Shown here piece after piece: positions 1 through 26,696 of a stretch of 64,000 nt of DNA. Where the stretch lies: the sequence record NZ_CP064874.1. One strand, 5' to 3'. The notes beneath the pieces are model-generated. The model worked only from the letters and a program-made list of their open reading frames with translations. It did not search any database and had not been told where the DNA came from. Positions within the stretch are counted from its first letter, which is position 1. Each line of letters begins with the position of its first letter. The position numbers were made by a program, and so were the translations under genes. Source of the stretch: a plasmid.

Positions 1-750
1 ACCTGCTCGGCGCGGACCTCCTGCCAGTAGGTGAGCTGATCGTCGGTCGCGGCCAGCTCCCTCTCGAGCCGTTCGGCGTAGGCGCCGGTGGCTGCAGCCG
101 TGACCTCGACATACCCGCCAGGAAGGGTGCGGCTTGACCCGTCGAGACGTCGACGGATGCCGGCGCGATCTGCGCGGAGCTTCTCGATCCGGTTCGCCAC
201 GGTGATCGGCGCATACCGTGCATCGGTCGCCGCGGCCGCGACGTCGGCACGCACCTGGGCGCGCCGTGCCGCCGCGTCGGCGTCGATGGAGCGGCGGATC
301 GCCGCGTCCGCCTTGCCGATCGCTCGGCGGTGGCCGGCCTCCGAGTGGTGTCCGACCTTGATGGGCTCGCCACCTTCGGGGAGGCGTCGCAGCGCGCGGG
401 CCGCGCGCTCTGCCTCTTCGGTGGCGTCCTGGTGTCGTCGATCTGCGCGCACCGCCAGGGCGGCAGCGCGATCGTTCCTGCGGTCGACCAGGTCAGCCTC
501 GACGACGGCCGCGGCCCGGCGTTCATAGTCGATCGAGATCTCGACGACGAACCCGGCAGCGGTGAGCTGCTCGGCGGTGCGGTTGATGATCGCGATCTTC
601 GGTTCGCGGTCGCGGGAGTGGGGGATGTACCAAGATCCGAGCGCCCGGCTCCACCGCCAGCCGTTGGCCTTGAGAGTATCGGCCGTGCCGTCGCCCCGGC
701 TGGTCCCTTCGATGAGGGTGCCTTCCGCGGCCGCGTGGATGATCGTGAGC
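1..750 (-). CDS. DUF3560-domain protein (3' ~250 codons; gene continues past window start)
   Basis: Reverse-strand translation from ATG at 748-750 reads MMLTIIHAAAEGTLIEGTSRGDGTADTLKANGWRWSRALGSWYIP..., a typical DUF3560 N-terminus of actinobacterial conjugative elements. GC3 bias is strong. It is absent from the ORF track because it runs off the window edge. Confidence 0.55.
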
Positions 751-751
751 A

Positions 752-1267
752 TCATGGCCGGCTCCCTTCCCGCGCGGCCGCGTCGTGCGTGAGAGGGTGG
801 CGGAATCCGATCTCCCGTTCCCAGACCTCGGCGGCGCGATGCAGGCCCTCATACTCCTTCACGCCCAGGTGGTCCGGGGAGTCGACGAGCGGGCGGTGAG
901 CGAACCGTCGCGCGATCGCGTCGCCGAGGCGTTCGACGAGGTCACGCGCAGGGGACTGATCCCATCCGGGGTGATGGCAGGAGACTTCGGCGAGCAGTAG
1001 ACGGCTGCGCTCGATCTGCAACGCCTGCTCGTCATCGGCATGGGGGACGATCTCGGCGACCGGCTGCCATTCGTAGCGCGGTGCGGCGATGTGCTGCTTG
1101 ATCGCGTAGCTGACGCTCGCGTAGTTCTCATCCCAGAGGCTCTGACCCATCCGGTCGGCGTTCTCGGCGAGCTCGCGCGGAGTGCTGCTGCGGTAGGCGG
1201 GTGTGGAAATGTAGGCGGCGGTGACCAACAGGTCGATGGTGTCGCGGTTCACGGGAAACGCGCGCAT
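752..1267 (-). CDS. hypothetical protein (first gene of an operon with the DUF3560 gene)
   Basis: The ORF track gives 752..1297. The ATG at 1297 lies in the centre of the operator palindrome and has no RBS. The internal Met at 1267 (MRAFPVNRDT...) is preceded by GAGGGGG at the right spacing, so this start is preferred. The stop overlaps the start of the downstream gene (ATGA). Confidence 0.5.
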   Translation of the reverse strand: MRAFPVNRDTIDLLVTAAYISTPAYRSSTPRELAENADRMGQSLWDENYASVSYAIKQHIAAPRYEWQPVAEIVPHADDEQALQIERSRLLLAEVSCHHPGWDQSPARDLVERLGDAIARRFAHRPLVDSPDHLGVKEYEGLHRAAEVWEREIGFRHPLTHDAAAREGSRP

Positions 1268-1410: not shown

Positions 1411-2541
1411 GTGCGAGTGGTCTGGCCGGATAGCGTTGGGATCGTGCCGAAGTCGTTGTCGATGAATGAGATCCGAGCCCGCGCTGCGCAGTTCACCCGT
1501 GACTGGCAGGACGAGCCCGGCGACGAGCGACAGCAAGCGCAGTCCTTCGTCCGGGATCTGCTCGGCGTGTACGGGATAACCCAGACCCGCGCGGCGTTCT
1601 ACGAGAAGCGTGTCAAGCGCTCGTCGACCGGCTCGCGCGGATACATCGACGCGCTGATCCCTGGTCTCGCGCTGATCGAAATGAAGTCCGCCGGCAAGGA
1701 TCTCGTCGCGGCTGAGCAGCAGGCGCTCGACTACATTGACGACCTTCCTGACCCGGAGGTTCCTCGGTGGGTAATCACGAGCGACTTCCGCCGGTTCCGT
1801 CTGCTCGATCTCCACGCTGAGAGCGAGGGTGTGCAGGAGTTCGCCCTGACCCAGATGCGGGATCGCGCTGACGTGCTCGCCTTCCTCGCCGGGTACGGTG
1901 AGCGCACCTTCGGATCGAAGGCGCAGGAGTCTGCGTCGATCAAAGCGGCAAAGCTGATGGCGTCCCTCTACGAGGCCCTCGAGGGGTCTGGGTACGACGA
2001 TCACGAGGCGTCGGTGTTCCTGGTGCGCACCTTGTTCGCCCTCTACGCCGATGACGCCGGAGTGTGGGATCGCGATCTGTTCCTCGAGTTCCTCGAGACC
2101 CGCACCGCGACGGATGGTTCCGACCTCGGGCCTCAGCTGTCGTTGCTGTACCAGGTCATGGGACGTGAGCCGTCTCGTCGGCAGTCAAACCTCGACGAGC
2201 TAATCTCGCGATTCCCCTACGTCAACGGTGGAGTCTTCGAGGAATCGGTGTCGATCCCGTCGTTCGACGCAGGCATGCGTGACCGGCTGATCGCGGCTGC
2301 AATGTTCAACTGGTCGGCGATCTCGCCGGCCATCTTCGGCAGCCTCTTCCAGGCCGTCAAAGACAAGACCGCTCGGCGTGAGCTCGGCGAGCACTACACC
2401 ACCGAGACCAACATCATGAAGGTCATCGGCCCGATGTTCCTCGATGAGCTGCGGCAGCGGTTCACGGACGGGTACCACGACACCGCCAAGCTCAAGAAGC
2501 TGCGTGCGGACATGGGGCTGATGCGATTCCTTGATCCAGCG
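1411..2541 (+). pseudogene. MmeI-family type IIG restriction-modification enzyme, N-terminal fragment (endonuclease domain, helical spacer, start of MTase motif I), disrupted by insertion
   Basis: MNEIRARAAQFTRDWQDEPGDERQQAQSFVRDLLGVYGI...LIEMKSAGKDL...DFRRFRL matches the MmeI N-terminus motif for motif. Homology stops after ...FLDPA (codon gcg at 2539-2541); the residues after that in the ORF are insertion-derived. The true start is probably the Met at 1462. Confidence 0.85.
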
Positions 2542-2542
2542 T

Positions 2543-2575
2543 TTATGCGCAAGTCGGGTGTCTCACGAGACAGCG
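2543..2575. repeat. left terminal inverted repeat of the 31-kb insertion
   Basis: ttatgcgcaagtcgggtgtctcacgagacagcg aligns at roughly 70% with the reverse complement of 33848..33880 (shared TTATG.G.A.G.TCGG.T..GTGTCTCA..CGAC). Confidence 0.45.
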
Positions 2576-2890
2576 GAAGATCGGCCATCAACTCGGGTGG
2601 GCTGGGGGCTCACGATAGCGGCGGTAAGCCATCCGGCTTCTACGACAATTCGGGAGTAGCGCGTTCAGCAGCAGCTGCTGCGACCGCGCGTGCAGTTACG
2701 GCGGTTGCCAGCAGGTGACTCTTGGCCGCCCGATCGGGTTGCCACGAATTGTCTGCAGCCACCGTACCCAGCTCTTCCAACACAACTGCGAGGGCGGCCT
2801 TGACATCATCCTCGCCGATCGCGAGTGGCGCCTGCGCAAGCTGCGTGAGTTGCGTCGGGTTGAACACCTGTGCCCCGAGCGCTTTCGTCA

Positions 2891-3145
2891 CTAGGGCGTG
2901 TTGATCAAGAGGTTCAGGCTCAGGATCGGCGAGTCTCGATGGTGTGACGCGTCAGGAGATCTCGGATGAGGTGTGGGCTGTTCTGGAGCCGCTGATGCCG
3001 GTGCCGGTTGGCAGGTCGCGGCCGTGGACGGATCATCGTCTCGCGGTCGAGGGCATGGCCTGGAAGTACCGCACGGGGGCGCCCTGGCGGGATGTGCCGG
3101 AGCGGTTCGGGAAGTGGAACTCGATCTACAAGCGGTTCGCGCGCG
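2891..3145 (+). mobile_element. IS5-family (IS427/IS1031-like) fragment: left IR plus N-terminal part of OrfA
   Basis: IR CTAGGGCGTGTTGATCAAGAGG at 2891-2912. ORF 2944.. encodes MTRQEISDEVWAVLEPLMPVPVGRSRPWTDHRLAVEGMAWKYRTGAPWRDVPERFGKWNSIYKRFAR, a DUF4096-type OrfA N-terminus. Homology is lost after about 3140. Confidence 0.6.
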
Positions 3146-3163
3146 CCCTACAAGCTGTCCGAG

Positions 3164-3616
3164 GTGGAGAACCGAACTCTCAAGTCCGAGCACCCTCAGG
3201 AGAACCGATGCTCCTTCTGCGTCGGCCAGAAGAACTACACCTGGTACCCCGTCGAGGACATCACGGTCGTACGCCGCTGGACCGCGAGTAGCGTCTACTG
3301 GCCAGACCGCGGAGGTAGAGAATCGGGCGGCTGGTACTCATGGAGATGCCCCAGCCACCCCTTTGATGGCAAGCCCTCGCCGCGGGTACACGATGCCCCC
3401 GATCATCTTCGCCCGAAGTACACCGCGCGATGTCGCATTGTGGAGCTGGGGCGCGCCTGCGGCGAACCCGCAGTCGGCCGCTTCGATAGCGCGTGGCTTT
3501 GCGAACGTCATGCCAGGCCAGTCCTCCTCAGTCAGCGAGACGAGGGGCTGCTGCGAGATGACGACCTTCAGATCAGCGACCCGAACGAAGCGCCTGACGG
3601 CCCAGCCGAGAGATAG
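3164..3616 (+). CDS. hypothetical Cys-rich protein (possible fragment)
   Basis: Open frame with good GC3 (…CSFCVGQKNYTWYPVEDITVVRRW…WRCPSHPFDGKPSP…). It has no ATG; the only candidate start is a GTG at 3164. It lies immediately after the IS fragment breakpoint. Confidence 0.25.
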   Translation: MENRTLKSEHPQENRCSFCVGQKNYTWYPVEDITVVRRWTASSVYWPDRGGRESGGWYSWRCPSHPFDGKPSPRVHDAPDHLRPKYTARCRIVELGRACGEPAVGRFDSAWLCERHARPVLLSQRDEGLLRDDDLQISDPNEAPDGPAER

Positions 3617-3814
3617 AGGGGGCCCGGGGGTTCGCGGCGGCGGTGCCCCGACGGGAAAACCGCGTATCGGTTACAGGAAACGCAGGAACAGCACCACGCC
3701 CCGATCCGCACCAGGACAGGTTGTGCCAACAGCCCACCATCGTCGTGTCTGCTGACCCGGAAAGTTCGCGCGTTCACGCGGCCGTAACGCGGACGCAATC
3801 GTCCCGACGCGGAC

Positions 3815-4003
3815 GTGCGTAACTCTTACTGTGATCACAAATCACAAGAGCGGAGCACGTATGGAAGCGCAGCTGTCAACCTCGCCGCACCGTCCTGGTC
3901 GACCGTCGTGGCCGGGCTCGCCGTCTCGGCGGTCGCGTACCTCGCGCTCAGCATGCTGACCCGCACAGCCTCTCGCACCCCGGCTGTCACGACGGCCGCC
4001 TGA
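3815..4003 (+). CDS. possible small membrane protein
   Basis: Frame contains a hydrophobic stretch WSTVVAGLAVSAVAYLALSML and ends 35 bp before the amidase gene. The start codon is uncertain. Confidence 0.2.
   Translation: MRNSYCDHKSQERSTYGSAAVNLAAPSWSTVVAGLAVSAVAYLALSMLTRTASRTPAVTTAA
3830..3846. promoter_or_regulatory. palindromic motif TGTGATCACA(AATCACA) upstream of the small-ORF/amidase unit
   Basis: A 10-bp perfect palindrome followed by a third half-site, about 200 bp upstream of the amidase start. Confidence 0.25.
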
Positions 4004-4037
4004 ACCAGACGACCTCCCTCCCGAAAGGAATCCGCTG

Positions 4038-5492
4038 ATGCCCCAGAACCACAACGTCGAAGAGCTCACCATCGCTCGCTTCCACGAAGGGATACGCACG
4101 GGGCAGCTGACCTCGCGCGCGCTCACCCAGTGGTACCTCGACCGCATCGCGGCACACAACGTCGACGGGGCCGCGATCAACGCCGTGGTCACGGTCAATC
4201 CGTCGGCGCTCGCCGAGGCGGAGGCGCGGGACGCCGCGTTCTCCGCCTCGGGGCAGCTCACCGGCCCGCTCCACGGCGTCCCGATCCTGGTGAAGGATCA
4301 GGCCGAGACGGCGGGCATCGCCACGTCGTTCGGATCGGCCGCCTTCGCCGATTACATCCCCGAGGCCGACGCGCGGGTCGTCGCGCTGCTGCGCGCGGCC
4401 GGCGCGGTTATCCTCGCCAAGACGGCCATGTGCGACTTCGCGGCCGGCTGGTTCTCGTCGTCGTCGCGGACGGGCCACACGCGCAACGCGTACGACCCGG
4501 CGCGCGACTCGGGCGGGTCCAGCGCAGGCACCGGCGCGGGTGTCTCGGCCGACTTCGGCCTCGTGGGCGTGGGCGAAGACACCGGCGGCTCTATCCGCAT
4601 CCCCGCGTCGTTCAACAACATCTACGGTCTGCGGGTGACGACCGGCCTGATCAGCCGCACCGGGTTCTCGCCGCTCGTCCACTTCCAGGACACCCCCGGT
4701 CCGATGGCGCGCACGGTCGAGGACCTCGCGACGCTCCTCGAGGTGATGGTGGGGTACGACCCCGCCGACGAGTACACGGCGGTGGCCGCCACGGAGCCGT
4801 CGGTCGGCGGATACGCCGCGGCCGTCGTCGACGCGCCGCCCATGTCGCAGTGGTGTGTCGGGGTGCTCGAGACCGCGTTCGGCAGTGGGGGCGACGCCGA
4901 AGAGGTCAACCGGGTGGTGCGCGACGCGATCGCGGCGATGGCGGATGCGGGTGCGACGATCGTCGAGGGCCTCGAGATCGACGGCCTGCCGGAGTGGATC
5001 TCCGACACGTCGGTCTACAGGCAGTCGCGGAGCGACCTGAACCGCTTCCTCGGGTCACGGAAAGGCCCCGTCTCCTCTTTCGATGAGCTGAACGACCTCA
5101 TCCCCGCGATCGCAGCCGGGCCTGAACAGGTCGAGGGCGATGCCGAGGTGACACGCCTCCGCCTCAACCAGGAGCACTTCCGCCGCCTGCTGCGCACGCT
5201 CTTCGCCGACTCGGGTGCCGCCCTGATCGTCTATCCCACCGTGCAGGTGCCGGCGCCGACGCATGACGGGCTCCGCTCGGGCGAGTACACCGCCCTCACG
5301 TTCCCCACCAACACGGTCATCGCCTCGCAAGCGGGCTTCCCCGCCGTCTCGATCCCGGTCGGGTTCACCGAGAGCGGGCTCGCGGTCGGGCTCGAAGTGC
5401 TGGGCACGCCGTTCACCGAGCAGCGCCTGCTGCAGTTCGCGGCTGCCCTCGCCCCGCTCGTCGACGCGCGTCGGGCGCCGGTCCTTGGCTGA
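4038..5492 (+). CDS. amidase (amidase-signature family)
   Basis: 484 aa. Contains the GGSSAGTGAGVS(A) and GVGEDTGGSIRIPASFNNIYGLRVTTG signature motifs. Confidence 0.85.
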   Translation: MPQNHNVEELTIARFHEGIRTGQLTSRALTQWYLDRIAAHNVDGAAINAVVTVNPSALAEAEARDAAFSASGQLTGPLHGVPILVKDQAETAGIATSFGSAAFADYIPEADARVVALLRAAGAVILAKTAMCDFAAGWFSSSSRTGHTRNAYDPARDSGGSSAGTGAGVSADFGLVGVGEDTGGSIRIPASFNNIYGLRVTTGLISRTGFSPLVHFQDTPGPMARTVEDLATLLEVMVGYDPADEYTAVAATEPSVGGYAAAVVDAPPMSQWCVGVLETAFGSGGDAEEVNRVVRDAIAAMADAGATIVEGLEIDGLPEWISDTSVYRQSRSDLNRFLGSRKGPVSSFDELNDLIPAIAAGPEQVEGDAEVTRLRLNQEHFRRLLRTLFADSGAALIVYPTVQVPAPTHDGLRSGEYTALTFPTNTVIASQAGFPAVSIPVGFTESGLAVGLEVLGTPFTEQRLLQFAAALAPLVDARRAPVLG

Positions 5493-5544
5493 CGCGCGGC
5501 CGATGCAGGGGTCGGCGCCGCTCGCACGGCCCGCCCCGCGGAGG

Positions 5545-6282
5545 ATGGACATCAACGCCGATCTCGGCGAGAGCTTCGGCGCGTACCGGTATGGCAACGA
5601 TGACGAGCTGATGCCGCTCATCACGTCCGCCAACATCGCGTGCGGGTTTCACGCGGGCGACCCGGCGAGCATGCGCGAGGCAGTGCGGAGCGCGATCGAG
5701 CACGGGGTAGCGATCGGAGCGCACGTGGGCCTTCCCGACCGGCTCGGCTTCGGCCGACGCGAGATCGACATCAGCGTTGCAGACGCGTACGACTACACCC
5801 TGTACCAGTTGGCCGCGCTCGACGGGTTCGTACGGGCGGCCGGAGCTCGGATGCGCCACGTCAAGCCGCACGGCGCGCTCTACATGATGGCGTCGAAGAG
5901 CCCCGATCTTGCGGAGGGGATCAGTGCGGCCGTCCGCGACTTCGACCCCACGCTGGCGATGTACGTGCTGCCCGGTTCCCACGCCGAGCACGCCGCGGAG
6001 AGCGCCGGGCTTGCCGTACGGCGGGAGTTCTTTGCGGACCGCCCGTACGAGGGCAGCGACGTCGTCATGTTCGGGTGGACCTACGATCAACTCGGCGGTG
6101 AGCAGGGTGCTGCCTCCCGCGTCGCAGCGATGCTGGGCAACCGCGCCTTCGGATCCGTCGAGACGATCTGTGTGCACAGCGATACGGACGAAGCCCCGGA
6201 GCTTGTGCGAGCTGTCCGATCTGCTTTGCGTCACCGGCAGGTCGCGGTCGGGCTGTCCGCACCTCGAGCGGAGGGCGAGTAG
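5545..6282 (+). CDS. pxpA: LamB/YcsF family 5-oxoprolinase subunit A
   Basis: Starts MDINADLGESFGAYRYGNDDELMPLITSANIACGFHAGDP, the canonical LamB/YcsF N-terminus. The ORF-track entry 5263..6282 is an upstream extension that overlaps the amidase. Confidence 0.8.
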   Translation: MDINADLGESFGAYRYGNDDELMPLITSANIACGFHAGDPASMREAVRSAIEHGVAIGAHVGLPDRLGFGRREIDISVADAYDYTLYQLAALDGFVRAAGARMRHVKPHGALYMMASKSPDLAEGISAAVRDFDPTLAMYVLPGSHAEHAAESAGLAVRREFFADRPYEGSDVVMFGWTYDQLGGEQGAASRVAAMLGNRAFGSVETICVHSDTDEAPELVRAVRSALRHRQVAVGLSAPRAEGE

Positions 6283-6496
6283 GAGTAACCACAGCGCTCG
6301 ATCCGTCGTTCAGCCGCGTTCCTTTAGCCCACTGGCGCGCAAGAGGCCCGGAATTTCCACTGTCATCTCGCAGGACATCGGTGACACTTCTCGCGGTCTT
6401 GGTGGTAACACTTCGGCCGGTCGTATTGGTAAGTGACCCCTTCTGAGCCTGTTGATTCTCGTGTTCGTCTCGCCATCACGCAGTGGCCCGATAACG

Positions 6497-7954
6497 GGCT
6501 CTTCGGACATTCGGTGGGGGTCATGGGGTGAGTCCGCCGGCGGCGAGGAGCATGCGGAGCCGGTAGTTGTCGCGGTTGCGGAAGCCGCGGGCGAGGCGGC
6601 GGTGCAGCTCGATGATCCCGTTCACGGCCTCAGTGCCGCCGTTCGATGATCGTCCGGTCGTGAAGTAGGCCAGGAACGCGGCTCGCCAGCGGCGGAGGGT
6701 GCGGCCGAGGCGGGCGATCTCGGGGATCGGGCAGGTGTGGAATGTGTCGACGACCTTCTCCGCGATCTGGCGGCCCTCGGCGAGGTCCTTCTGGTGGTAG
6801 GCGGAACGCAGTTGCTGGGCGCACTGCCATGCGACGAACACCTCGTCGTGCGCGGGGTCGGCCTCGATCGCTGCCGCGAGCCTGGTCCGCTGCTTCTCGG
6901 TGAGGTTCTCGGCGCCGGCGCGGAGGATGGTCTGGATCCCGTAGAGCGGGTCGCCGGTCCGACCGCGATGCCCGAGGGTGTCCTGCTGGACGCGGCGGCG
7001 GACCTCGTCGACGGCGGCGGTGCCGAGCTTGACGACGTGGAATGCGTCCAGCACGGCCGTGGCGTCTTCGAGCTGGTCGTCGATCGCGGTCTTGTAGCCG
7101 GCGAACGGGTCAAGAGCCGCGACTTTCACGTTCTGCCGGAACGCTTCGCCGCGTTCGGCGAGCCAGGACGCGTAGGCCTTCCCGGAGCGGCCCGGCACCA
7201 GGTCGAGCAGCCTGGCCCGCGTCTTCCCGTCCGCGTCGCGGCTCAGATCGACCATCCCGGTAAGCTCCTTCGGACCGCGCTTGCGGGGGTCGACGTGATG
7301 CCAGATGTGCTCATCGACACCGAGCGTGGTGACGTTCTCGAATCGGGACTCGTCGGCCGCGAGCCGCTCCAACTCAGGCTCGACAGCGCGCCACACCGTC
7401 TTCCACGACGTGCCGAGCTGACGGGCGATACCGTGCACGGTGGCGTGCTCGCGGCGCAGCTGCCCGATCGCCCAGCCGACGGCGCGCGTGGTGATCGACC
7501 CGCGCCGGGCGACCAGACCCGGGAGCTGCTCCACGAACGTCCGCCGCGCGCATCCCACCTCGTCGCACCGCCAGACCCGCTGCCGCCATACGATCCGCAC
7601 CCGCGTCGTCGCGGGCACATCATGAAGCACCCGTCGACGGCGTCCGCGGCCGGTCGCGACGACCCCACACGAGGGGCAGCCGGTCGGCGCCGCTGGCGTC
7701 GAGACCGTCACCACCAGCAGCCCGTCGCGACGGTCGACGCGCTCGACATGGACATCGGGAAGACCCAGCAGAACGTCGCAGCGGGAACACGGATCAGCGG
7801 CAGAGCGCGCGGAAGCGCACCCCGAAGTAGGGTGAAGCACGTCGAGGTCCTCGTGAAGATCAGACAGTTAGCGCTACTGATCCTCGGGGACCTCGACCCC
7901 TACCCGCCGAACCCCACCCGGCAAGCCTCACCCCCACCGAATGTCCGAAGAGCC
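6497..7954 (-). mobile_element. ISL3-family insertion sequence (copy 1), 1458 bp, 8-bp TSD CGATAACG
   Basis: Terminal IRs GGCTCTTCGGACATTCGGTGGGGGT (6497..) and its reverse complement (..7954). Flanking direct repeats cgataacg at 6489-6496 and 7955-7962. Confidence 0.85.
6521..7840 (-). CDS. ISL3-family transposase
   Basis: 439 aa with an N-terminal zinc finger (CPSCG) and a typical ISL3 core (…LGVDEHIWHH…). The start is a GTG. Confidence 0.85.
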   Translation of the reverse strand: MLHPTSGCASARSAADPCSRCDVLLGLPDVHVERVDRRDGLLVVTVSTPAAPTGCPSCGVVATGRGRRRRVLHDVPATTRVRIVWRQRVWRCDEVGCARRTFVEQLPGLVARRGSITTRAVGWAIGQLRREHATVHGIARQLGTSWKTVWRAVEPELERLAADESRFENVTTLGVDEHIWHHVDPRKRGPKELTGMVDLSRDADGKTRARLLDLVPGRSGKAYASWLAERGEAFRQNVKVAALDPFAGYKTAIDDQLEDATAVLDAFHVVKLGTAAVDEVRRRVQQDTLGHRGRTGDPLYGIQTILRAGAENLTEKQRTRLAAAIEADPAHDEVFVAWQCAQQLRSAYHQKDLAEGRQIAEKVVDTFHTCPIPEIARLGRTLRRWRAAFLAYFTTGRSSNGGTEAVNGIIELHRRLARGFRNRDNYRLRMLLAAGGLTP

Positions 7955-8259
7955 CGATAACGCGCCGCGCGGGGCGGTGAGCACGTTCTGTGTCGAGCAC
8001 GGGATCTCCCGCAAGACGTTCTACGCGATCCGTAAGCGCGTCGCCGAGGAAGGGCCTGCCGCGGCGCTCGAGCCGAGGTCGCGTCGTCCGAAGTCGAGCC
8101 CGTCGAAGCTGAGCGACGAGGTCAAACGGCAGGCAATCGGTGTGCCGGCGGCGTTGGAGCAGTCCGGGCTGGACCACGGTCCGATCAGCGTGCACGACAG
8201 GATGCGCACGCTGAGGATGGACCCTGTGCCGTCGACGGCGTCGCTGGCGCGGATCTCCT

Positions 8260-8329
8260 CTAGGCCGTGTTGATCATGAGGGTTCACTCACCCACCGAGG
8301 AGCGGAACCTCTTGATCAACACGCCCTAG
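8260..8329. mobile_element. 70-bp MITE-like element made of IS5-family terminal inverted repeats
   Basis: CTAGGCCGTGTTGATCATGAGG (8260-8281), a 26-bp spacer, then CCTCTTGATCAACACGCCCTAG (8308-8329). The second IR is the exact reverse complement of the IR at 2891-2912. Confidence 0.55.
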
Positions 8330-9835
8330 GAAGCTGCTGACGTAAAAGCGTGTGTTCGTTCGAGTAGAGGCATCGGCGGCAACTGCTTCGGTCAAGAGAG
8401 CCGAATCGACTCTACGCTGAACGGTTGCTACCCAAAGGTATACGTCCAGACTCAGAGATGGGTTGAAGACCGCTGCATAGTCTGCCTCGTTGTTGAGCAA
8501 TGTCGACGGGCGTGCACGCGCATCATCAGGTCGGCTCAGTCCAATCGCCATCACGGCCTGCCCGAGTGTGGCGATGCTGATGATCTTGTCGGCTGGCTTT
8601 CCGGCGTTCTTGTAGAAGTTCTTTCGGCGGTCGTAGTACCAGCCCTTCGCGGCGAAGTGCGACTCGATCTGGCGGTGGAGATCCTCGGTCGCATGCAGCG
8701 ACGCGTCTGGAACCTTCGTTTGACTGTTGGTCGCTCGGATCACGTCGTCACGAGTGGCCTCGTCGAGGGTCTTGATTACTCTGACCTGGACAGATCGCCG
8801 CTTGTGGCGCTCAAGGTCGACGCCGGTCGCGGTAAGGACATCGTGGATGGCATGCGAGGTCTGCATGCCATTGACGATCTGCACACCCGACAGAGTGAAG
8901 GTCTTCTCCCCGCCGATATTCACCCCTGAACACAGGATCGTTACCCCGTTGTTTAGCCACCAGAAGTCTCGCTCATCGTCGGCTTCGAGAGTTGCCTGCA
9001 TCTGCCTGTTCACGGTGACTGCGCCCTGGAAGTCGCGAACGTTCCAATCGAACAAATGACCGCGGAGTGCCCCCGACTCGTCAGAAAGGAATCGGAAGTA
9101 CTCGGGTAGCGAGACGAGACCGGCATAGGAGTCGCCTTCCGAGATGTAGTCCCGGAACCGGAGCTGGAGGTCATACTCAGGCGTGGCGCTCGCCATCGCC
9201 CACAGCTCCCTCGCGCCCACGAGGCGCGCCTCGACATCTGACCCAATGACCAGCGAGGAGAGCGCCGCGCGGGTGTCGGCGACCTTCTGTGTAACACCCG
9301 CTGACGCGCTCGTGGTGTCGCCGCGTGACACATATGCGAACGTGATCGAGATGCGTGGCGACCGGATACTGAGCAACGTCCACGCCCTGGTAAACAAGCG
9401 AACACGCGCGATGACATCGGCCGAATAGATCCCAGCCAGCTGCTCGTCGGTGAAGTTCAGGTCGAGCAGCTTCTTCGTGCTCGCGTTCACCTTGTCGAAT
9501 GCGTCCTCGCCGAATCCCTCCGAGCGCTTCGCCTGGATGAGCCACAGGGAAATCTCGGCGCCCTTTCTCACTTCGCTCGGCTTGAAGCCGTCCTCAAACA
9601 CGTCAGAGTCCTCGCTGAGGAGGCGGCCGTCGAGGAAGGTGTAGACGGCGTCAAGCCCGCCGTCCAGTCCTCCGCCGATCCTGCCCGCTTCGATCTCCTC
9701 GTCGCTGAGGTTCTGCCCGCTAAGGACCGTCGCAGCAGCGAACACTTCGAACGCAACGTCATCGGGCAGGGGCGTATCTCGACTGTCCTGCGCCGCCTTG
9801 AGGAACTGATCGACAAGGACAACCTCATTGCTCAT
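8288..9835 (-). CDS. AIPR-family protein (abortive-infection phage-resistance-like); last 14 codons and the stop are supplied by the MITE
   Basis: 515 aa. Carries AIPR hallmarks (…DFWWLNNGVTILCSGV…IVNGMQTSHAIHDVL…). The C-terminal residues LGRVDQEVPLLGG* are encoded by MITE sequence. Confidence 0.7.
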   Translation of the reverse strand: MSNEVVLVDQFLKAAQDSRDTPLPDDVAFEVFAAATVLSGQNLSDEEIEAGRIGGGLDGGLDAVYTFLDGRLLSEDSDVFEDGFKPSEVRKGAEISLWLIQAKRSEGFGEDAFDKVNASTKKLLDLNFTDEQLAGIYSADVIARVRLFTRAWTLLSIRSPRISITFAYVSRGDTTSASAGVTQKVADTRAALSSLVIGSDVEARLVGARELWAMASATPEYDLQLRFRDYISEGDSYAGLVSLPEYFRFLSDESGALRGHLFDWNVRDFQGAVTVNRQMQATLEADDERDFWWLNNGVTILCSGVNIGGEKTFTLSGVQIVNGMQTSHAIHDVLTATGVDLERHKRRSVQVRVIKTLDEATRDDVIRATNSQTKVPDASLHATEDLHRQIESHFAAKGWYYDRRKNFYKNAGKPADKIISIATLGQAVMAIGLSRPDDARARPSTLLNNEADYAAVFNPSLSLDVYLWVATVQRRVDSALLTEAVAADASTRTNTRFYVSSFLGRVDQEVPLLGG

Positions 9836-9895
9836 CGAAGATTCCCGCTTCCTGGTCGCGCTCGACCATCGACACGTTCAGCCAACCTAGCTGTT

Positions 9896-10858
9896 TCACG
9901 ACTCGTCTCTATTCACAGTGTCGGGGCCGAACCACTCGGGCGGGACGCCATCTGCCCACTGCTCCAGGGCCGAGTCGTCGATCGCGTAGTAGCCAGCAAC
10001 AAGGTGGCACGCCTTGTAGAAGATCAGGCAAGCGAGACGCACCTGCCAGGCCACCACGCCACGACCGACGGTCCAGGGTCGACGGGCTACACCGTCAATC
10101 TCTATCGGGATCGACTGCTTGTCGACGGTGAGCAGGGACGGGTGCGAGTAGTCCGAGAGCGAGTCGTAGAGAACCTTTGTCTTTCCCTCGAAGCACAGGT
10201 CTGCGAACGATGCAGCCGCGCCACCAAGGCTCGCCATCCCCTGTCCGGCCACAGTCCAGGTCTCGATCAGATCGGGAGAGGACAGGTCGATCTCAACGGC
10301 GGTCTCGCCGAAGATTGCCCTGGCCTCAGCGATCTTGGTGTCGCGGAGCACCTTCGCACGATTCCCGTGCCCTCTATCGAACTTGCCTGCTGTATACCGC
10401 TCTCGCCGTAGCGAGGAGATCGCCTCCAGGTATAGGCGGGCGACCCGCACCTCGCCGGCTTCCACCTGGACGCGCGGATCGAGCAGCCATGCGGCTCGTC
10501 CCGCGAACTCGAGTTCCGCGCGCACGAGCGGCCATAGCGCCACCGCAACTCGCCGCGCACGGAGCAGCGCCTCGACGGCGAGAAGCTGCTGGCTGATTGC
10601 ATCCACGTACAGCCCGGCGCGCTGACCTGCACCATGTTCGACATTAGCTGGAGCGTCCGGCTTCGCTTCACGAAACTGCCGGGCCTCGGTCGCCGCTGGC
10701 GAGCCGTTGGCGGGGAGTACCGCGAGTCCGCGCGCCATCTCCATCCACGCGAGCACAAGGTGGTGGCAGAGGTCGGCGTACGTATCCAACTCCGCGGCCA
10801 ACTCATCCGGCACGTCAACCCACGCGGTATCATTCTCTATCTCGGGTCCCTGGCTCAT
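9896..10858 (-). CDS. hypothetical protein (operon member between the DUF499 and AIPR genes)
   Basis: 320 aa with good GC3. Its start lies 7 bp after the DUF499 stop. No family was recognised. Confidence 0.55.
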   Translation of the reverse strand: MSQGPEIENDTAWVDVPDELAAELDTYADLCHHLVLAWMEMARGLAVLPANGSPAATEARQFREAKPDAPANVEHGAGQRAGLYVDAISQQLLAVEALLRARRVAVALWPLVRAELEFAGRAAWLLDPRVQVEAGEVRVARLYLEAISSLRRERYTAGKFDRGHGNRAKVLRDTKIAEARAIFGETAVEIDLSSPDLIETWTVAGQGMASLGGAAASFADLCFEGKTKVLYDSLSDYSHPSLLTVDKQSIPIEIDGVARRPWTVGRGVVAWQVRLACLIFYKACHLVAGYYAIDDSALEQWADGVPPEWFGPDTVNRDES

Positions 10859-10864
10859 CGACCG

Positions 10865-13800
10865 TCAGTCCATCGACCAGTCGTCGTCGCCGAAGCCGAG
10901 GGTCTTGAGGTTCTCGCGGATCGCCGAGCGCTGGTCGTCGCTGAGCTTGGCGAGCTGCTCGGACTCGATGTCGATCGAGACGCGCACCGGGACGCCGGCC
11001 GTGACGAAGTGCGACACGATCTCCTCGTAGATCTGCCCGGCGTCGCGCACGACGCGGTTCACGGTGAGGTTCTTCGTCGCGTGGAATCGCGTTGGCGCGG
11101 TGGCCGCTGCACGCCCGCCCCCCGAACTCGTCGTCGTTCCCGGCGCTCCTGAATCCGTGCCGGGCGACGACGTTCCCGATCCGCCCGTCGCAGTGCCCGT
11201 CCCGCCTTGCTCGCCTTCGCCACTCTGACCCTCGGTGACCCTAGTGTCAGCTTCGATCTGATGGGTCGCGATAACAGGGTCGACGAGCAGCCCTCCTTGC
11301 CGTACAGCAGCAGGAGCCTTCATGGTCAGGCCGCTGAATCTGCCGTCCTCGTACGAGTCGGCGTAGGCGAAGCCGTCGAGTTCCACGACGAGGGCGTCGT
11401 CAAGGTGCCACACGGCGTCGATGACGACCTTCGGCTGCACGACCTTCGGCATGTAGACGTACTGGCTGAAGTACCCGACCAAGACGTCGAGTGGCACGTA
11501 CGGCTTCTCGCGCCACAGGTTCAGCCGGTTGATCTGCATACGGAGAAGTGACGGCGAGAAAGTGCGAACGACGAACTCGCCTGCGTCGGCCTTCTTGGTC
11601 ACGCGCGCAGCGAGTGTGCCGTCGCCGTTCATTAGAATCGACTCCAGCTCGATCTCGGCGGCGCCGGGCTCCTGAGTCGGAACGAGAATCCAGCGGTAGG
11701 CCTCGCGGATCGCGTCCTTCACCGTCTGCTTCTGCTGGGCAACGCGTGACTCGGCGACTTTGATGTTGTGCTGGTCGAGGTTCAGCGAATCGCGGTTCTC
11801 GAGTATGTACTCCCATGCCATCCGCTGGCGCACGGCATTGAGCAGGATGTCGATGCGGTCGACCTCGGGAGCGAGGAAGACGAGAGAGTTCTTGTGGATG
11901 CGCGCGTTGGTGCCGCGCTTCGTCAGGAACTCGATCGCCGCGTCCTCAGCCACGGAGCGCCCGCGCTTCGAGAAGGGACGGTCGGGTCCGAAGATCACGA
12001 GACCGATGCCCGGGTCGTCCTCGACGTCGATGCTGCCGTGCGGCAATCGATGCACGCGCTCGAACAGGCCCTTATCGGTCTCCTGGCGGACGACCTGCGC
12101 CAGCTCGTCGAACACCTGCTCCTCGTGGTAGGAGTCGGCGCGCTCCTGCACGATCTGCGCGACGGTCTGCTGCAGCGACAGCCAGTACCGGTCCTGGTCC
12201 CGGTTCATGTACTTGCCGAGGTCGCCGAGTCGTCGCAAACCGTCAGCGACGTGCGCGGGGTTGTCGCCCGGGTAGGTCGAACCGAGCACTACGCGCTTCT
12301 GTTCGATACCGCGGATGGTCGCGGCGCTGCCGTCGCGATTGCGGAGGTTGGCCATCGGAGCGGTGCCGAGGAACACACAACGAGCGGCGCGTTTGGTCGC
12401 CATGGACCGGCCGAGGATCTTGATGTCGCTGTCCACGATGTTGGCCGTCGAGGTCTCGCCTGCGACGTCAGCGTCCACGATCGGTTTCCAGGAGTCGTCG
12501 AGATGGTTGGCCAACTCGTCGAAGACCTTCGCGTTGTCGAGCGGGATCGAAGCGGGGAGGATCATCGGTGATCGGTCACCGCTCGTCCAGAGGGCGTAGA
12601 CGACCGTCGCCATGAGGCGCAGTACGCCGCGGGTGCGCTGGAAGCGCTCCAGGGTCGACCAGTCCTTGTAGAGCCGATCGAACAGCTCCGGGTGGATCGG
12701 GTAGGCGGTGCGCATCGATGCGCGGTAGCCGGGCTGCATGACCTCGCTTGGCACATCCGAGCCGTAGCGCACGTAGTGGTCCATGTACTTGTGAACGACG
12801 AGGTCGCGCGCGGCGTCTTGTTCTCGTCCGAACGGCTTGAAGATGCGCCGCCTGACGATCTCGAACGACTCCTCGATCGTCGCCGGCTGCCAGGCAGACT
12901 CCAGACGGTGGATCACGGAGCGGAGGTGTCGCAATGCCTCCAGGCCCGCGGTGCCGCCAACCTCGTGCTCGTTCTCGGTCGGCGTCTCGGCTCCCTGCAT
13001 GTCGCGGACGACGTCGGACGCCGGGAGCGAGACTACGAGGAGCGCGGTCGGGACGGCCTTCACTGCCTCGGTCAGCGACTGCACGAAGGTCATGTGGCCG
13101 TCGAACGTCCCGGCGGGCGCGACCTTCTCACGTGACCAGAGCTGGCGCAGATACGCTACCCACTCGTCGATGAGGATGATGCACGGCCCGTACTTCTCGA
13201 AGAGGTCGGCTAACGCGGTGGTCGTTGGTGGCACCGACTGCTCGTCGTACCGCTTCAGGAGTTCGTACCCGTCGACGCCCCCGAGCTGGTACGCCAGCTC
13301 GCCCCACAGTGTGTTGACGGTGATGCCCTCGGGCTTTGGCATCCCCAGGATTGAGAGGTCGTTGCCGACAAGGACCGCACGATTGACGCTGGCGGGAAGC
13401 TCCGCGACGCCAATGCCGTCGAGCAGCTCCCGCATCCCCAGCAGCTGCTCAGCGGGTACTCCTGCTGCTGCGTGGTAGACGGCCAGCAGCGAGTGCGTCT
13501 TGCCGCCACCGAAGGTCGTCATCAGGTCGATGACCGGTTCTCCACCTCCGCCACTGAGGCGCTTGATCGCCTGCTCTAGAAGGTAGCGCAGGCCGCGAGT
13601 GAGGTAGGTGCGACCGAAGAACTCCACAGGGTCGCCGTACTCGGGGCCGGCCACGCCCTGGTGCACCTGACGCAGGTCTGCGGCGAACTGGGCCAACTCG
13701 AACGTGCCGCGGGCGACATCGTCGTGAGGTTCAATGACGTCGCGCCATGCGGGGAGACCAGTCGAGTCGACTTGCACTGAGAGGGCCCGCTCCTGGGCGC

Positions 13801-14251
13801 GCTGGAGCCGCTTCTGGTCCTCCTCGAACATGAGTCGGCGGAACTCTCGACGCATCTCATCGGCCTTGTCCGCGTGCTGAGCAGCACCGATCGACCGGAG
13901 GATGTGCTCGCCGTCCATGAGCACCCGCTCGGTGCGCTCCGACGAGATTCGCTCTCCGTGCGCCCACTCCTTGCGGGCATCCCACAGTGCAGAGATCACT
14001 CGTTTGTCCTCGAAAGTGAGCTGCTCCTTGAAGACCTGATGCCACTGCTTGTCGAAAACCCAGAACAGGTACGCGGGGTCTGTGGGACTCGGTGAGCCGT
14101 CACGCCCGGTGAGGCCAGCCGTTCGCCCGACCTCGGCGGCCCAGCTGCCGCCGTGCTTGGCTTCAAGGAGCCCGATCATCCACGGGCCGAGCCCTTCAAC
14201 CACGAGGTCGAGTACCCGTCCAACGCGTTCCTTGTTTGAAAGTGCCGCCAT
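10865..14251 (-). CDS. DUF499 P-loop ATPase with an N-terminal Swt1-like HEPN region
   Basis: Walker A TTFGGGKTHSLLAVYH; protein is larger than 1100 aa. The start MAALSNKERVGRVLD (ATG at 14251) overlaps the MTase stop (TGAcATG). The ORF-track N-terminal extension was not used. Confidence 0.85.
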   Translation of the reverse strand: MAALSNKERVGRVLDLVVEGLGPWMIGLLEAKHGGSWAAEVGRTAGLTGRDGSPSPTDPAYLFWVFDKQWHQVFKEQLTFEDKRVISALWDARKEWAHGERISSERTERVLMDGEHILRSIGAAQHADKADEMRREFRRLMFEEDQKRLQRAQERALSVQVDSTGLPAWRDVIEPHDDVARGTFELAQFAADLRQVHQGVAGPEYGDPVEFFGRTYLTRGLRYLLEQAIKRLSGGGGEPVIDLMTTFGGGKTHSLLAVYHAAAGVPAEQLLGMRELLDGIGVAELPASVNRAVLVGNDLSILGMPKPEGITVNTLWGELAYQLGGVDGYELLKRYDEQSVPPTTTALADLFEKYGPCIILIDEWVAYLRQLWSREKVAPAGTFDGHMTFVQSLTEAVKAVPTALLVVSLPASDVVRDMQGAETPTENEHEVGGTAGLEALRHLRSVIHRLESAWQPATIEESFEIVRRRIFKPFGREQDAARDLVVHKYMDHYVRYGSDVPSEVMQPGYRASMRTAYPIHPELFDRLYKDWSTLERFQRTRGVLRLMATVVYALWTSGDRSPMILPASIPLDNAKVFDELANHLDDSWKPIVDADVAGETSTANIVDSDIKILGRSMATKRAARCVFLGTAPMANLRNRDGSAATIRGIEQKRVVLGSTYPGDNPAHVADGLRRLGDLGKYMNRDQDRYWLSLQQTVAQIVQERADSYHEEQVFDELAQVVRQETDKGLFERVHRLPHGSIDVEDDPGIGLVIFGPDRPFSKRGRSVAEDAAIEFLTKRGTNARIHKNSLVFLAPEVDRIDILLNAVRQRMAWEYILENRDSLNLDQHNIKVAESRVAQQKQTVKDAIREAYRWILVPTQEPGAAEIELESILMNGDGTLAARVTKKADAGEFVVRTFSPSLLRMQINRLNLWREKPYVPLDVLVGYFSQYVYMPKVVQPKVVIDAVWHLDDALVVELDGFAYADSYEDGRFSGLTMKAPAAVRQGGLLVDPVIATHQIEADTRVTEGQSGEGEQGGTGTATGGSGTSSPGTDSGAPGTTTSSGGGRAAATAPTRFHATKNLTVNRVVRDAGQIYEEIVSHFVTAGVPVRVSIDIESEQLAKLSDDQRSAIRENLKTLGFGDDDWSMD

Positions 14252-14252
14252 G

Positions 14253-22359: not shown

Positions 22360-22432
22360 TACAGTGCAGAATGCCATACGGATTAGGGCGTGTCTGACAA
22401 AGGTTGAGGGGATCGGTTGAGACGCTGGAGCG

Positions 22433-23439: not shown

Positions 23440-25995
23440 TCAGCGGACGGGTTCGTCGGCGTGCCGGACGTCGTCCGACGACGCATCCCCGGCTTCCGTC
23501 GCCGCCCCGTGGATCGGATGGCTTCGCTCGAGCGCGGCGCCCTCGACGTCGACGTTCGGGAGGATCCGATCGAGCCAGCGCGGCAGCCACCACGCCTTCT
23601 CGCCGAGCAGGTGCATGAGCGCGGGGATCAGCAACAGCCGCACCACGAACGCATCGAACAGCACGCCGATCGCGAGGCCGAAGCCGAGCGGTCGCACGAG
23701 CGCCAGGTGCGAGAAGATGAACCCGCCGAACACCGACACCATGATGATGGCCGCCGCGGTGACCACCGCTCGCCCGTTCCGTAGCCCGGCGACAACCGCC
23801 GTCCGGGCCGGCACCCCGTGCACGAACGCCTCTCGCATTCCGGTCACCAGGAAGAGCTGGTAATCCATCGCGAGACCGAACAGCACGCCGATGAGGATGA
23901 TCGGTGCGAAGTTCAGCACCGGTCCGGGGGTGTGGACGCCGAACACCGGCCCGAGCCATCCCCACTGGTAGATCGCCACCACGGCTCCGAGTGCGGCGAA
24001 CAGCGACAGCACGAACCCGGCTGTCGCGATCAGCGGCACGAGGATCGAGCGGAACACCAGCACGAGGATGAGCAGCGACAGCCCCACGACCAGCGCGAGG
24101 TACACCGGCAGCACGCCGGCGAGTTTCTCGGAGATGTCGATGTTGCCGCTGGCCTGGCCTGCCACCCCGAGCTCGATGTCTCCGATCGGCGAGAGCTCGC
24201 GCAGGTCGTGCACGAGCTGCTCGGTCGATTCGGTGGACGGTCCGCCGATCGGCACGACCTGGAAGGCGAGGAAGTCGCGGTCCTCGGACACTCCGACCGG
24301 CGCGACCGCGACCACGCCGCCCTGCTCGAGCAGCTGACCGGCTAGGTCGGCCTGTACCGCGACGACGTCGTCCTCATCGATCGGGGCCGGCAGCGCGGCG
24401 GTGACGAGCAGCGGTCCGTTCTGGCCGGCTCCGAATGCCTCGGCCGCGGACGTGTAGGCCCGGTACTGGCTGGAGTCGACGGGCTCGGATGACCCGTCGG
24501 GCATGCCGAGCCGCATGGAGAGCGCCGGGATCGCGATGATGAGCAGCGCGCCGACGGCGAGTGCGGCGCGCGCGAACGCACGCGAGGTCTTCATGGGCTT
24601 CAGCTCGGGGCGAGCGTGCGATTCGTGGCCGATCTGGCCGCGAGCCCGCCGATTGACGATCCGGAGGCCGATGATCCCGAGCATCGCAGGCGTCAGGGTC
24701 ACCGACAGGAGTACCGCGACCAGCACGCATCCGGCCGCGACCGTTCCCATGACGCCGACGAAGGGGATGCCGGTCACGTTCAGGGCGAGCAGTGCGACGA
24801 GCACCGTCGAGCCTGCGAAGACCACGGCGTTGCCCGACGTGCCGTTCGCGAGGGCGATGGATTCGTGCACGTCGACACCGGCGAGCACTTGCCGTCGATG
24901 GCGGTTGATGATGAACAGCGCGTAGTCGATGCCCACGGCCAGTCCGAGCATCATGCCGAGCACGGGGGTGGCCGACGACATGTCCACGACGCCCGAGAAG
25001 GCCAGCGACCCGGCGACGCCGACGCCGACGCCGACGAGTGATGAGACGATCGGCAGCAGCGCCGGCAGCAGCGCGCGGAACATGATGACGAGCGTGAGCA
25101 GCGCGAGCGCGACGCCGACGATCTCGCCGATGCCGATGAGTCCCTCGACCGCGGTGGCGATCGTCGCCGAGTAGTAGTCGACCTGCACCCCGTCGATTTC
25201 GGCCTGGTCGAGTTCGTCCGAGACCGCTTCCACGACCTCGGACGGGACGGAGAACACGTCGTCCTCGAACATCACCACGCCGATCGCAGTGGCACCGTCC
25301 TCGGACACGGTTCGGATCTCCGAGGCGGCATCCATGAGCACCCGCGCGTCATCGAGCTGAGCGCGCTGCTCGGCGAGTTCGCCGGCACCGGCGTCCAGCT
25401 CGCCGCGGCGATCCTCGAGCTGAGCGGCACCGGCATCGAGCTCGGCCTGCTGCGCGGCGAACTGCGCCGCTGCGAGCGCGTACGTCCCCGCGGACTTCGC
25501 TTCAGCGATGGCCGCGTCGAGTTGCGCCTGAGCGGCCTCGAGCTGGGTTCGCGCAGCCTCGATCTGAGTGGAGCCCTCGTCGAGCTGGCGCTGCGCTTCG
25601 TCGAGCTGGGCCGCGCCGGCTTCGAGCTGCTGCTCCTGTTCGGCGCGATCGGACGTCGCGACGAAGGGGTCGACCACATCGGCCACGCCGTCGATTCCGT
25701 CGATCTCGGCCAACATCGCGGAGATATCCCCCTGCTGGGCCTCGGTGAAGTCGGATCCGTCCTCCGTCCGGAACACGATGGTGCCGGTTCCGCCCCCGAG
25801 TTCCCCCAGTTCTTCGGTGAGCCGCTCGGTGACGCGCTCGGTCTCGGTGCCCGGGATGCTCATGCTCGACGTCAGCGTGCCGCCGAAGGAGACGAAGGCT
25901 CCGACAGCCAGGGCGAGTGCGGCGATCCAACCGGCGACCACGGCCCACGGTCGGCGCGCGGCGAATCGTCCGACACGGTAGAGGAGTTCTGCCAC
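23440..25995 (-). CDS. MMPL-family RND-type membrane transporter
   Basis: 851 aa with 12 predicted TM regions in two blocks. A coiled-coil-rich periplasmic insert is present. Typical MMPL segments are LGMMLGLAVGIDYALFIINRHRRQ and LFGLAMDYQLFLVTGMRE. Confidence 0.85.
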   Translation of the reverse strand: MAELLYRVGRFAARRPWAVVAGWIAALALAVGAFVSFGGTLTSSMSIPGTETERVTERLTEELGELGGGTGTIVFRTEDGSDFTEAQQGDISAMLAEIDGIDGVADVVDPFVATSDRAEQEQQLEAGAAQLDEAQRQLDEGSTQIEAARTQLEAAQAQLDAAIAEAKSAGTYALAAAQFAAQQAELDAGAAQLEDRRGELDAGAGELAEQRAQLDDARVLMDAASEIRTVSEDGATAIGVVMFEDDVFSVPSEVVEAVSDELDQAEIDGVQVDYYSATIATAVEGLIGIGEIVGVALALLTLVIMFRALLPALLPIVSSLVGVGVGVAGSLAFSGVVDMSSATPVLGMMLGLAVGIDYALFIINRHRRQVLAGVDVHESIALANGTSGNAVVFAGSTVLVALLALNVTGIPFVGVMGTVAAGCVLVAVLLSVTLTPAMLGIIGLRIVNRRARGQIGHESHARPELKPMKTSRAFARAALAVGALLIIAIPALSMRLGMPDGSSEPVDSSQYRAYTSAAEAFGAGQNGPLLVTAALPAPIDEDDVVAVQADLAGQLLEQGGVVAVAPVGVSEDRDFLAFQVVPIGGPSTESTEQLVHDLRELSPIGDIELGVAGQASGNIDISEKLAGVLPVYLALVVGLSLLILVLVFRSILVPLIATAGFVLSLFAALGAVVAIYQWGWLGPVFGVHTPGPVLNFAPIILIGVLFGLAMDYQLFLVTGMREAFVHGVPARTAVVAGLRNGRAVVTAAAIIMVSVFGGFIFSHLALVRPLGFGLAIGVLFDAFVVRLLLIPALMHLLGEKAWWLPRWLDRILPNVDVEGAALERSHPIHGAATEAGDASSDDVRHADEPVR

Positions 25996-26129: not shown

Positions 26130-26696
26130 ATGGATGCCCGCGTCGTCCGCACCCGACGGTCCCTGCAGGAGTCGCTGTTCGCCTTGGCTCGCGAGCGGCC
26201 GCTCGAGGAACTCACCGTCGCCGACATCGTGCAGCGGGCAGGAGTGAATCGGAGCAGCTTCTATCAGCATTACGCCGACAAGGACACCCTTCTCGCCGAT
26301 GCCATCGACACGGCGGTCGAGCAGGCAGGGACCTTCCTGCCTGAAACGATCACCGCACCGGACGGCCCGCAACGCGCGCTCCTCGCCTACCTGCGACACA
26401 TCGACGAGCATGTGGCGGTCTATCAGCGCGTGCTCGGACGCCACGGCTCGGCCGCGGTGGCGTTCAGGTTGCGTGATCGCATCGAGGCCGTTGCCCGCGA
26501 GGGCCTCGGGCGAATGGGCACGCACGCATTCGAAGGGATCCCCCTCGACGTCGTCAGTGCCGGCATCGCCGGCTCAGCACTCGGCGTCATCGAGGCGTGG
26601 CTCGCGCGCGACCCCCGACCGCGAGTCGAGACCGCTGCGGACTGGGTATGGCGTGTGCTCGTCGGCGTCGGCGATGCAATGGAGGAGGGGCGCTGA
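26130..26696 (+). CDS. TetR/AcrR-family transcriptional regulator
   Basis: N-terminal HTH …LTVADIVQRAGVNRSSFYQHYADKDTLL…. Diverges from the MMPL gene. Confidence 0.85.
   Translation: MDARVVRTRRSLQESLFALARERPLEELTVADIVQRAGVNRSSFYQHYADKDTLLADAIDTAVEQAGTFLPETITAPDGPQRALLAYLRHIDEHVAVYQRVLGRHGSAAVAFRLRDRIEAVAREGLGRMGTHAFEGIPLDVVSAGIAGSALGVIEAWLARDPRPRVETAADWVWRVLVGVGDAMEEGR

Follow-up and report, generated by a model that had tools for sequence, protein, structure and literature searches.

A transposase-less IS5-family cassette within an AbiU/AIPR abortive-infection gene

The segment 2891-8329 of the window (the whole 64-kb stretch of DNA analysed here) is, at a probability of about 0.85, one non-autonomous composite transposon of the mobile-insertion-cassette (MIC) type, inserted whole in an AbiU gene. 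Its left end is the IRL of a decayed 945-bp insertion sequence resembling the IS427 group, termed IS-B, of which 254 bp are left, and its right end is the outer inverted repeat of a 70-bp mini-element. Between these ends it carries as cargo a catabolic cluster (amidase and LamB/YcsF-PxpA, joined by GntR and a permease where the copy is fuller) as well as an IS481-like remnant. The unit entered AbiU/AIPR at a CTAG that follows codon 503, with duplication of this CTAG or of its TA; the last 83 codons of AbiU were left 5.4 kb off, with the 5′ part running into the mini-element. The window copy later lost 1.93 kb, containing GntR and the permease, and later gained a 1458-bp ISL3 element with an 8-bp duplication. 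A full-length IS-A (a relative described below) or IS-B elsewhere in the cell presumably supplied the transposase in trans, which would have recognised the two matching ends.

One insertion at a CTAG of the AbiU gene

The truncated AbiU/AIPR ORF (8288..9835, minus strand) consists of 503 native residues followed by 12 element-encoded residues and an element-encoded stop. Its C-terminus is ...FYVSSF-LGRVDQEVPLLGG and stop, also read as ...FYVSSFLGRVDQEVPLLGG and stop. A Leu codon lies in the CTAG, and everything after it, 12 residues and a stop, is encoded by the 70-bp element. The earlier note on this DNA was right that this tail is element-encoded, but its count of 14 codons and the stop should be 13 residues and the stop.

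The displaced 3′ part of the gene, with the native last 83 codons and stop, lies at 2640 to about 2890 on the minus strand, in frame with 9835..8330. On this strand the AIPR frame across one CTAG runs in frame into the 83-codon ORF, and deletion of 2895-8329, with one CTAG left, restores an ORF of 586 aa. Along its entire length the restored protein matches a database protein (P0001) at 100% identity, and dozens of homologues of 574-594 aa, each covering 96-99%, were found for it. The contig of P0001 (L001, Logan SRR16481185) is 99.85% identical to window 10967..8326, and its positions 2638-2990 are 100% identical to window 2895..2543. In L001 there is a single CTAG, compared with two in the window, at 2891-2894 and 8326-8329, which by this comparison are the left and right copies of the duplicated target. 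L001 is therefore an empty site, and hence 2891-8329 is one insertion, with CTAG (or its inner TA) duplicated. The earlier suggestion that 2891..8329 could move as a unit was thus understated, since the empty site, the CTAG duplication and a second context, described below, indicate that it did insert whole.

The earlier note had proposed a comparison with AIPR homologues. Homologues down to 46% identity do not end at the insertion point; they continue for about 83 aa past it and keep motifs such as SPxQL and W.LDRxAKS. The gene is also intact in a related strain, Microbacterium sp. MMO-113. Moreover, the restored protein matched the PADLOC AbiU profile over its full length (575 bits, model positions 1-533 of 537, residues 3-571), and by coordinates the 503 native residues end short of this span. 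The match to Pfam AIPR (E 3e-40, residues 262-454) was not extended further by the restoration, and because the Pfam domain alone left the match at 262-454, the C-terminus was settled by the homologues and PADLOC. Because homologues conserve this C-terminus and the empty site contains it, the native end of AIPR, previously described as replaced, is displaced by 5.4 kb and intact at 2640 to about 2890 (minus strand), neither replaced nor lost. The truncated AbiU is probably non-functional. In an exact-protein look-up, no record was identical to the 515-aa fused AIPR or to the window amidase.

A rival model built on the earlier note has a 70-bp MITE insert alone near the 3′ end of AIPR, whose C-terminus it would have replaced, with the inverted repeat at 2891 coming from an unrelated IS fragment that could merely pair with it. 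The 70-bp element is indeed bounded by inverted repeats, with CTAG on both sides, and the AIPR ORF ends within it. However, when the 70 bp alone are excised, the resulting ORF of 582 aa passes into the IS481-like remnant in antisense and so is not the native gene; the true 3′ end of AIPR lies beyond 2891 and is restored only by removing the whole 5.4 kb. Insertion of the 70 bp alone is refuted by the empty site L001, and we regard it as extremely improbable.

The AbiU region is a defence island, with an HmaC-like ATPase and a type IIG restriction-modification remnant. Upstream of AbiU, 9896-14302 (minus strand) encodes a 320-aa ORF without family match and a 1145-aa HmaC-like protein, an ATPase (PADLOC HmaC 889 bits, DUF499, N-terminal Swt1-like HEPN domain). 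A type IIG (MmeI-like) restriction-modification gene at 1411-2718 (plus strand) converges on the displaced 3′ end of AbiU and overlaps it. This gene is truncated and contains Pfam MmeI_N and MmeI_hel only; its match to PADLOC REase_MTase_IIG reaches position 368 of the 912 in the model, at residue 377 of the 435-aa ORF. Since L001 is 100% identical to window 2543-2895, the 3′ end and stop of the type IIG ORF are the same at the empty site.

Ends and cargo of the unit

From CTAG to CTAG the unit is 5,439 bp long. Its outer inverted repeats (2891-2915 and 8305-8329) are identical at 25 of 25 nt, which confirms and extends the earlier reading of 2891-2912 (CTAGGGCGTGTTGATCAAGAGG) as the exact reverse complement of 8308-8329 (22/22). 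The 19-nt core of the repeat, with up to 3 mismatches, occurs at three places in the 64-kb window (2894, 8263 and 8308); by chance 0.03 are expected per shuffle, and none of 100 shuffles reached three. A repeat finder paired 2891-2934 with 8286-8329 (44 nt, 80%) and 8260-8289 with 8300-8329 (30 nt, 83%).

The left end of the unit (2891..3144, plus strand) comprises the IRL and first 254 bp of the 945-bp IS-B, with 99.6-100% identity to L101, L053, L005, L022 and L044. Only 67 codons of orfA are kept (2944-3144, plus strand; Pfam DUF4096; 67/67 residues by tblastn). IS-B is whole in L101 and L053, with orfA and orfB in different frames, and the fused orfAB of the full-length copy in L101 scored 270 bits on NCBIfam NF033580 ‘IS5 family transposase’, for which the cut-off is 110 bits. 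IS427-group elements have been described as about 830-865 bp long, with two overlapping ORFs and 2-4-bp duplications (PMC3281130). The size, ORFs and duplication of the L101 copy (945 bp; CTAG or TA) are IS427-group-like in the IS5 family, a likeness judged by these published group features and not against ISfinder entries.

IS-A, the second relative, is 1315 bp long (e.g. L049; L002 4442-5756), occurs at no fewer than 25 loci, mostly of Microbacterium, and shares 83% identity with IS-B in its first 250 bp. Among the genome-locus matches listed, 72 of 76 genuine ends of the IS-A/IS-B family abut CTAG. The assignment of the ends to the IS5 family made in the earlier note was borne out by the 254-bp start of IS-B on the left and by an IS-A end in the right 44 nt, and the full-length parental ISs that it had suggested looking for were found in IS-B (945 bp) and IS-A (1315 bp). 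No full-length IS-A or IS-B occurs in the 64-kb window, where the other IS5-family transposase is 40-51% identical to IS-B and has different ends. Two 951-bp copies of an IS5-family IS, 100% identical and inverted (22384-23334 and 26713-27663; ends (T/C)TAG|GGCGTGTCTGACAAAGG), flank an MMPL transporter gene (23440..25995, minus strand) and a TetR regulator (26130..26696). We take the segment 22384-27663 as a candidate for a composite transposon of the classical kind, in which the transposase-proximal end of the IS faces outward on both sides.

The mini-element at the right end of the unit (8260..8329) has the sequence and coordinates first described, CTAGGCCGTGTTGATCATGAGG / GTTCACTCACCCACCGAGGAGCGGAA / CCTCTTGATCAACACGCCCTAG, with a middle piece of 26 nt, and can be divided into a left arm (8260-8285) and a right arm (8286-8329). 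Read inward from 8329, the right arm is identical at 44 of 44 nt to the transposase-proximal end (IRL) of IS-A as found at its 25 or more loci. The 26-nt left arm matches the IRL of an L048-type IS at 25 of 26 positions, the closest among the matches listed; it is unlike the IRR of IS-B (...CTTAATCCACACGGCCTAG) and the IRR of IS-A, from which it differs at 4 of 26 positions. The labels IRL-like and IRR given to the arms before are wrong because both arms are of the transposase-proximal (IRL) type. Judged from its sequence, the 70-bp element is a chimeric pair of IRL-type ends from different relatives.

As DNA, the 70-bp element forms a strong predicted hairpin (-19.7 kcal/mol, z -5.8). It resembles a MITE in size and structure, being shorter than about 300 bp, non-coding and bounded by terminal inverted repeats like IS ends. 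Among the matches listed in a genome scan for the inverted repeat (at least 114 loci) no full copy occurred outside the unit, and a metagenome scan for the central junction of the element gave one match, the 5.4-kb unit itself. In the searched genome loci and metagenomes the element is therefore not multicopy, and we call it MITE-like, where the earlier note had spoken of a MITE. CTAG is present on either side of it, its two flanks being non-contiguous sequence, and no empty site was found for the 70 bp by itself. It is 70/70 identical in L116 and identical in L125, and it is present in L123 and L125-L128.

Micromonospora genomes contain 72-73-bp hairpin elements that share this IR core and architecture (GGCCGTGTTGATCAAGAGGTTT ... 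AAACCTCTTGATCAACACGGCC; L012 6366-6437; L033 3384-3455; L047 5901-5972; L099 4009-4081). They may be a true MITE family from the same IS lineage, and they show that mini-elements of such size do occur in the family. These elements bear on a variant of the cassette model that concerns the origin of the right end, in which the 70 bp are a full-length IS-A-like copy after internal deletion and the unit was first an ordinary two-IS composite. The 44/44 identity of the right arm to the IRL of IS-A fits such a deletion, as does the lack of a solo 70-bp copy among the matches listed or in the metagenome scan. However, the left arm is 4/26 off the IRR of IS-A and nearest, at 25/26 among the matches listed, to the IRL of another relative, and the Micromonospora elements offer a precedent for a mini-element proper. 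We hold this variant as a tentative option, possible but doubtful. Since the 70 bp are identical in both contexts of the unit, any deletion would be older than the last transposition.

The cargo of the cassette begins with a 420-bp piece without assigned origin (3145..3564), which is 100% identical in L125 and L124 and absent from L118, and whose ORFs gave no Pfam or NCBIfam match. It is followed by the GntR-upstream region and the first 13 nt of the GntR gene (3565..3873, plus strand), which end at the junction of the 1.93-kb deletion. In this deletion, L125 3351 is joined to L125 5283, and GntR (PF00392/PF07729) and most of the cytosine/purine permease gene (PF02133) were taken from the window copy; the deleted part is kept in L125, L124 and L118. 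The passenger genes that remain are an amidase (4038..5492, plus strand; Pfam PF01425, E 1e-89), with DNA 97-99% identical in L118, L124 and L125, and a LamB/YcsF (PxpA-like) gene (5503..6282, plus strand; Pfam PF03746, E 2e-78). The product of the latter is 100% identical to P0121, and the cluster members include a protein of a Microbacterium paraoxydans plasmid, on which an identical PxpA is annotated. The GC-content of the amidase-pxpA part (4001-6000) is 70-72%, against 60-62% for the AbiU gene.

The ISL3-family element of 1458 bp (6497..7954, minus strand) is a later insertion in the unit, with an 8-bp duplication CGATAACG at 6489-6496 and 7955-7962, and its site is uninterrupted in L116, L123 and L125. 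Its transposase (6521..7840, minus strand; PF01610; 286 bits on NF033550) is unrelated to the unit and not cognate; of a cognate transposase, tblastn found only IS-B residues 1-67 in the unit. A second ISL3 copy at 63665-64000, 100% identical to 7619-7954 and inverted, ends at the window end. With the 1.93-kb deletion and the ISL3 insertion, the window copy is the derived copy.

The last part of the cargo is an IS481-like transposase remnant (6392..8259, plus strand), comprising the left end and about 120 N-terminal codons and interrupted by ISL3. Homology to L118-type loci stops at 6391, just before the remnant, and at 8259 its HTH fragment abuts the 70-bp element. Only the HTH N-terminus is left (Pfam HTH_29/28/32). 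On NF033577 (IS481) the remnant scored 43 bits over a partial match and its closest full-length relative 207 bits, with a cut-off of 224; a Mycolicibacterium plasmid encodes a 412-aa integrase-core protein whose N-terminus shares 73% identity with the remnant. At its end the remnant reads ...SLARISS, where the closest full-length relative reads ...SLARIFREAG.

In L124, too, this remnant breaks off with ...ATCTCCTCTAG at the same CTAG, and at the place where the window and L125 have the 70-bp element there is a complete IS481-family IS (L124 9068-10187; 27-nt inverted repeats, 332-aa transposase, 331 bits on NF033577), followed by a truncated cation-efflux gene. L124 was considered as the intact form of the remnant and rejected, as this IS is separate, with its own inverted repeats and a transposase 38% identical over 66 aa. 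Because it is separate, insertion of the mini-element into an intact IS481 copy is no longer proposed. The earlier note took the 70-bp element to have truncated the remnant; judged from L124, either the truncation predates both elements, with one rare CTAG used twice, or there were two independent losses. Elements of two different IS families seem to have made use of one rare CTAG.

A second context and related loci

The whole unit is also present in L125 (9,044 bp, from a Tara Oceans sample) with other flanks, GCCGCTG|CTAG ... CTAG|GGCGGCT. Compared with the window, the left 983 bp are 100% identical (the 420-bp piece included), the cargo is 98.8% identical and the 70-bp element is identical. 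GntR and the cytosine/purine permease are present in this copy, and the IS481-like remnant is without ISL3. Partial copies of the L125 arrangement were found in L116, L123, L126-L128 and L130-L138, which are independent ENA, JGI and Logan assemblies. The two ends of the unit and its inner junctions thus recur in more than one genomic context and, taken together with one exact empty site, indicate transposition of the whole unit.

The neighbours of the unit in the L125-type context (ParA, SSB, resolvase and DUF3560) make it look like a plasmid. In related plasmid-like contigs (L140-L142) the unit is absent at the corresponding place; a base-level empty site for the second context is not available because their DNA by the junction is too diverged. 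Joining the left flank of L053 to the right flank of L116 gave no convincing continuous gene, and these are probably different sites. A megablast of 2500-8600 against PLSDB gave IS5 and ISL3 relatives only and no copy of the unit. Window 168-752 is 68% identical in DNA to the DUF3560 gene flanking the unit in L125, and DUF3560 homologues are often annotated as plasmid proteins, a hint that the window region may itself belong to an element that is integrated or of plasmid origin.

The recurrence of these junctions also bears on whether the structure is real. Chimeric joins at repeats could mimic a composite unit, as IS ends are common places for short-read assemblies to break off or be joined wrongly and many loci end at these inverted repeats. 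However, both outer junctions and all inner ones recur in independent assemblies of different projects (ENA, JGI and Logan), and the empty site comes from yet another sample, so that we give an assembly artefact virtually no credence.

Another possibility is assembly in place, in which AbiU first received a single IS, and homologous recombination between IS copies (by a cointegrate or the integration of a circle) or other rearrangements added the cargo afterwards. IS427-group elements can form cointegrates (PMC3281130), and the region is rich in ISs. However, the two ends have only 25 bp in common, and these are inverted, which makes circle integration by homologous recombination impossible. 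Moreover, the arrangement of IS-B stump, 420 bp, cargo, remnant and 70-bp element recurs elsewhere with the same outer ends, and since the inner junctions recur in an unrelated context, independent assembly twice is very unlikely. We consider assembly in place quite improbable, and insertion of the cassette as a whole remains our preferred reading.

Part of the history lies outside this whole-unit model. L118 and L124 have the same left end and cargo as the unit but other left flanks, and in the sequence of either locus examined, no right-hand inverted repeat with up to 6 mismatches was found. L118 (NZ_CANKZA010000004.1, 5762-10847) has a variant of the left end and cargo, with 42 more bp of IS-B and without the 420-bp piece, the IS481-like remnant and the mini-element. 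This variant is flanked by type I restriction-modification genes on one side and TIR / Eco57I-like genes on the other and is probably an older state of the locus.

Likeness to known elements and significance

MICs (e.g. MIC231 of Bacillus cereus) and TIME-COMP, together with MITE-flanked integrons, resemble the unit in that passengers lie between IS-type inverted ends. As in the unit, there is no cognate transposase inside MICs and TIME-COMP, the target duplication surrounds the whole and mobilisation is presumed to occur in trans, which is how these elements are defined in the literature (PMC4133298, PMC3281130). TIME-COMP1, too, was found inside an ORF, close to its end, and is accompanied by direct repeats (PMC4133298, PMC3281130). 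Our unit shows the features of a MIC, namely inverted IS-type ends, a target duplication and empty site, more than one context and no cognate transposase. The last feature separates a MIC from a classical composite transposon, and from it mobilisation presumably took place in trans.

The unit differs from MICs and TIME-COMP in its ends, which are of different kinds, a decayed IS stump and a 70-bp mini-element, and which come from two related but distinct ISs (83% identical), both outer ends being IRL-type. In addition, its parent family, known from sequence, is IS5 (IS427-like), not IS4/IS231 or Tn3. The parent IS-B is like the IS427 group of the IS5 family (945 bp, DUF4096 orfA, orfB in another frame, short CTAG/TA-centred duplication), whereas of such an IS no more than the opening 254 bp are left in the unit. 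The 70-bp element is like prokaryotic MITEs in being small and non-coding, with IS-like terminal inverted repeats and a strong hairpin; unlike them, it was seen only in this unit and is chimeric, with both arms IRL-type. The restored protein agrees with AbiU/AIPR abortive-infection proteins in its matches to PADLOC AbiU and Pfam AIPR and in its place in a defence island, whereas the window allele is split, without the 83 C-terminal residues and with a 12-residue foreign tail. The unit is a further case of a known kind of element, and its dual-IS, both-IRL ends are an unusual detail.

A wider role can be imagined, which we think unlikely in this full form. Mini-elements of the IS427-like family might act as portable replacement ends, and the landing of one at a rare CTAG by a decayed IS might mobilise the stump and whatever lies between. 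The catabolic operon might in this way circulate among Microbacterium plasmids and chromosomal defence islands, and recurrent use of a CTAG, as in L124, might be general in high-GC Actinomycetota.

Our results present no challenge to current knowledge of transposition, and their main value is the correct annotation of this region. What looks like a shortened AIPR gene, an isolated ORF of 83 codons and a piece of an IS is one AbiU gene split by one cassette. The unit is also a documented natural case of a transposase-less IS5-family cassette, with an empty site, a target duplication, a second context and ends from two ISs. For the host of this sequence, the insertion probably inactivated an abortive-infection gene, and through it a defence island acquired catabolic genes, for an amidase and a PxpA-like protein.
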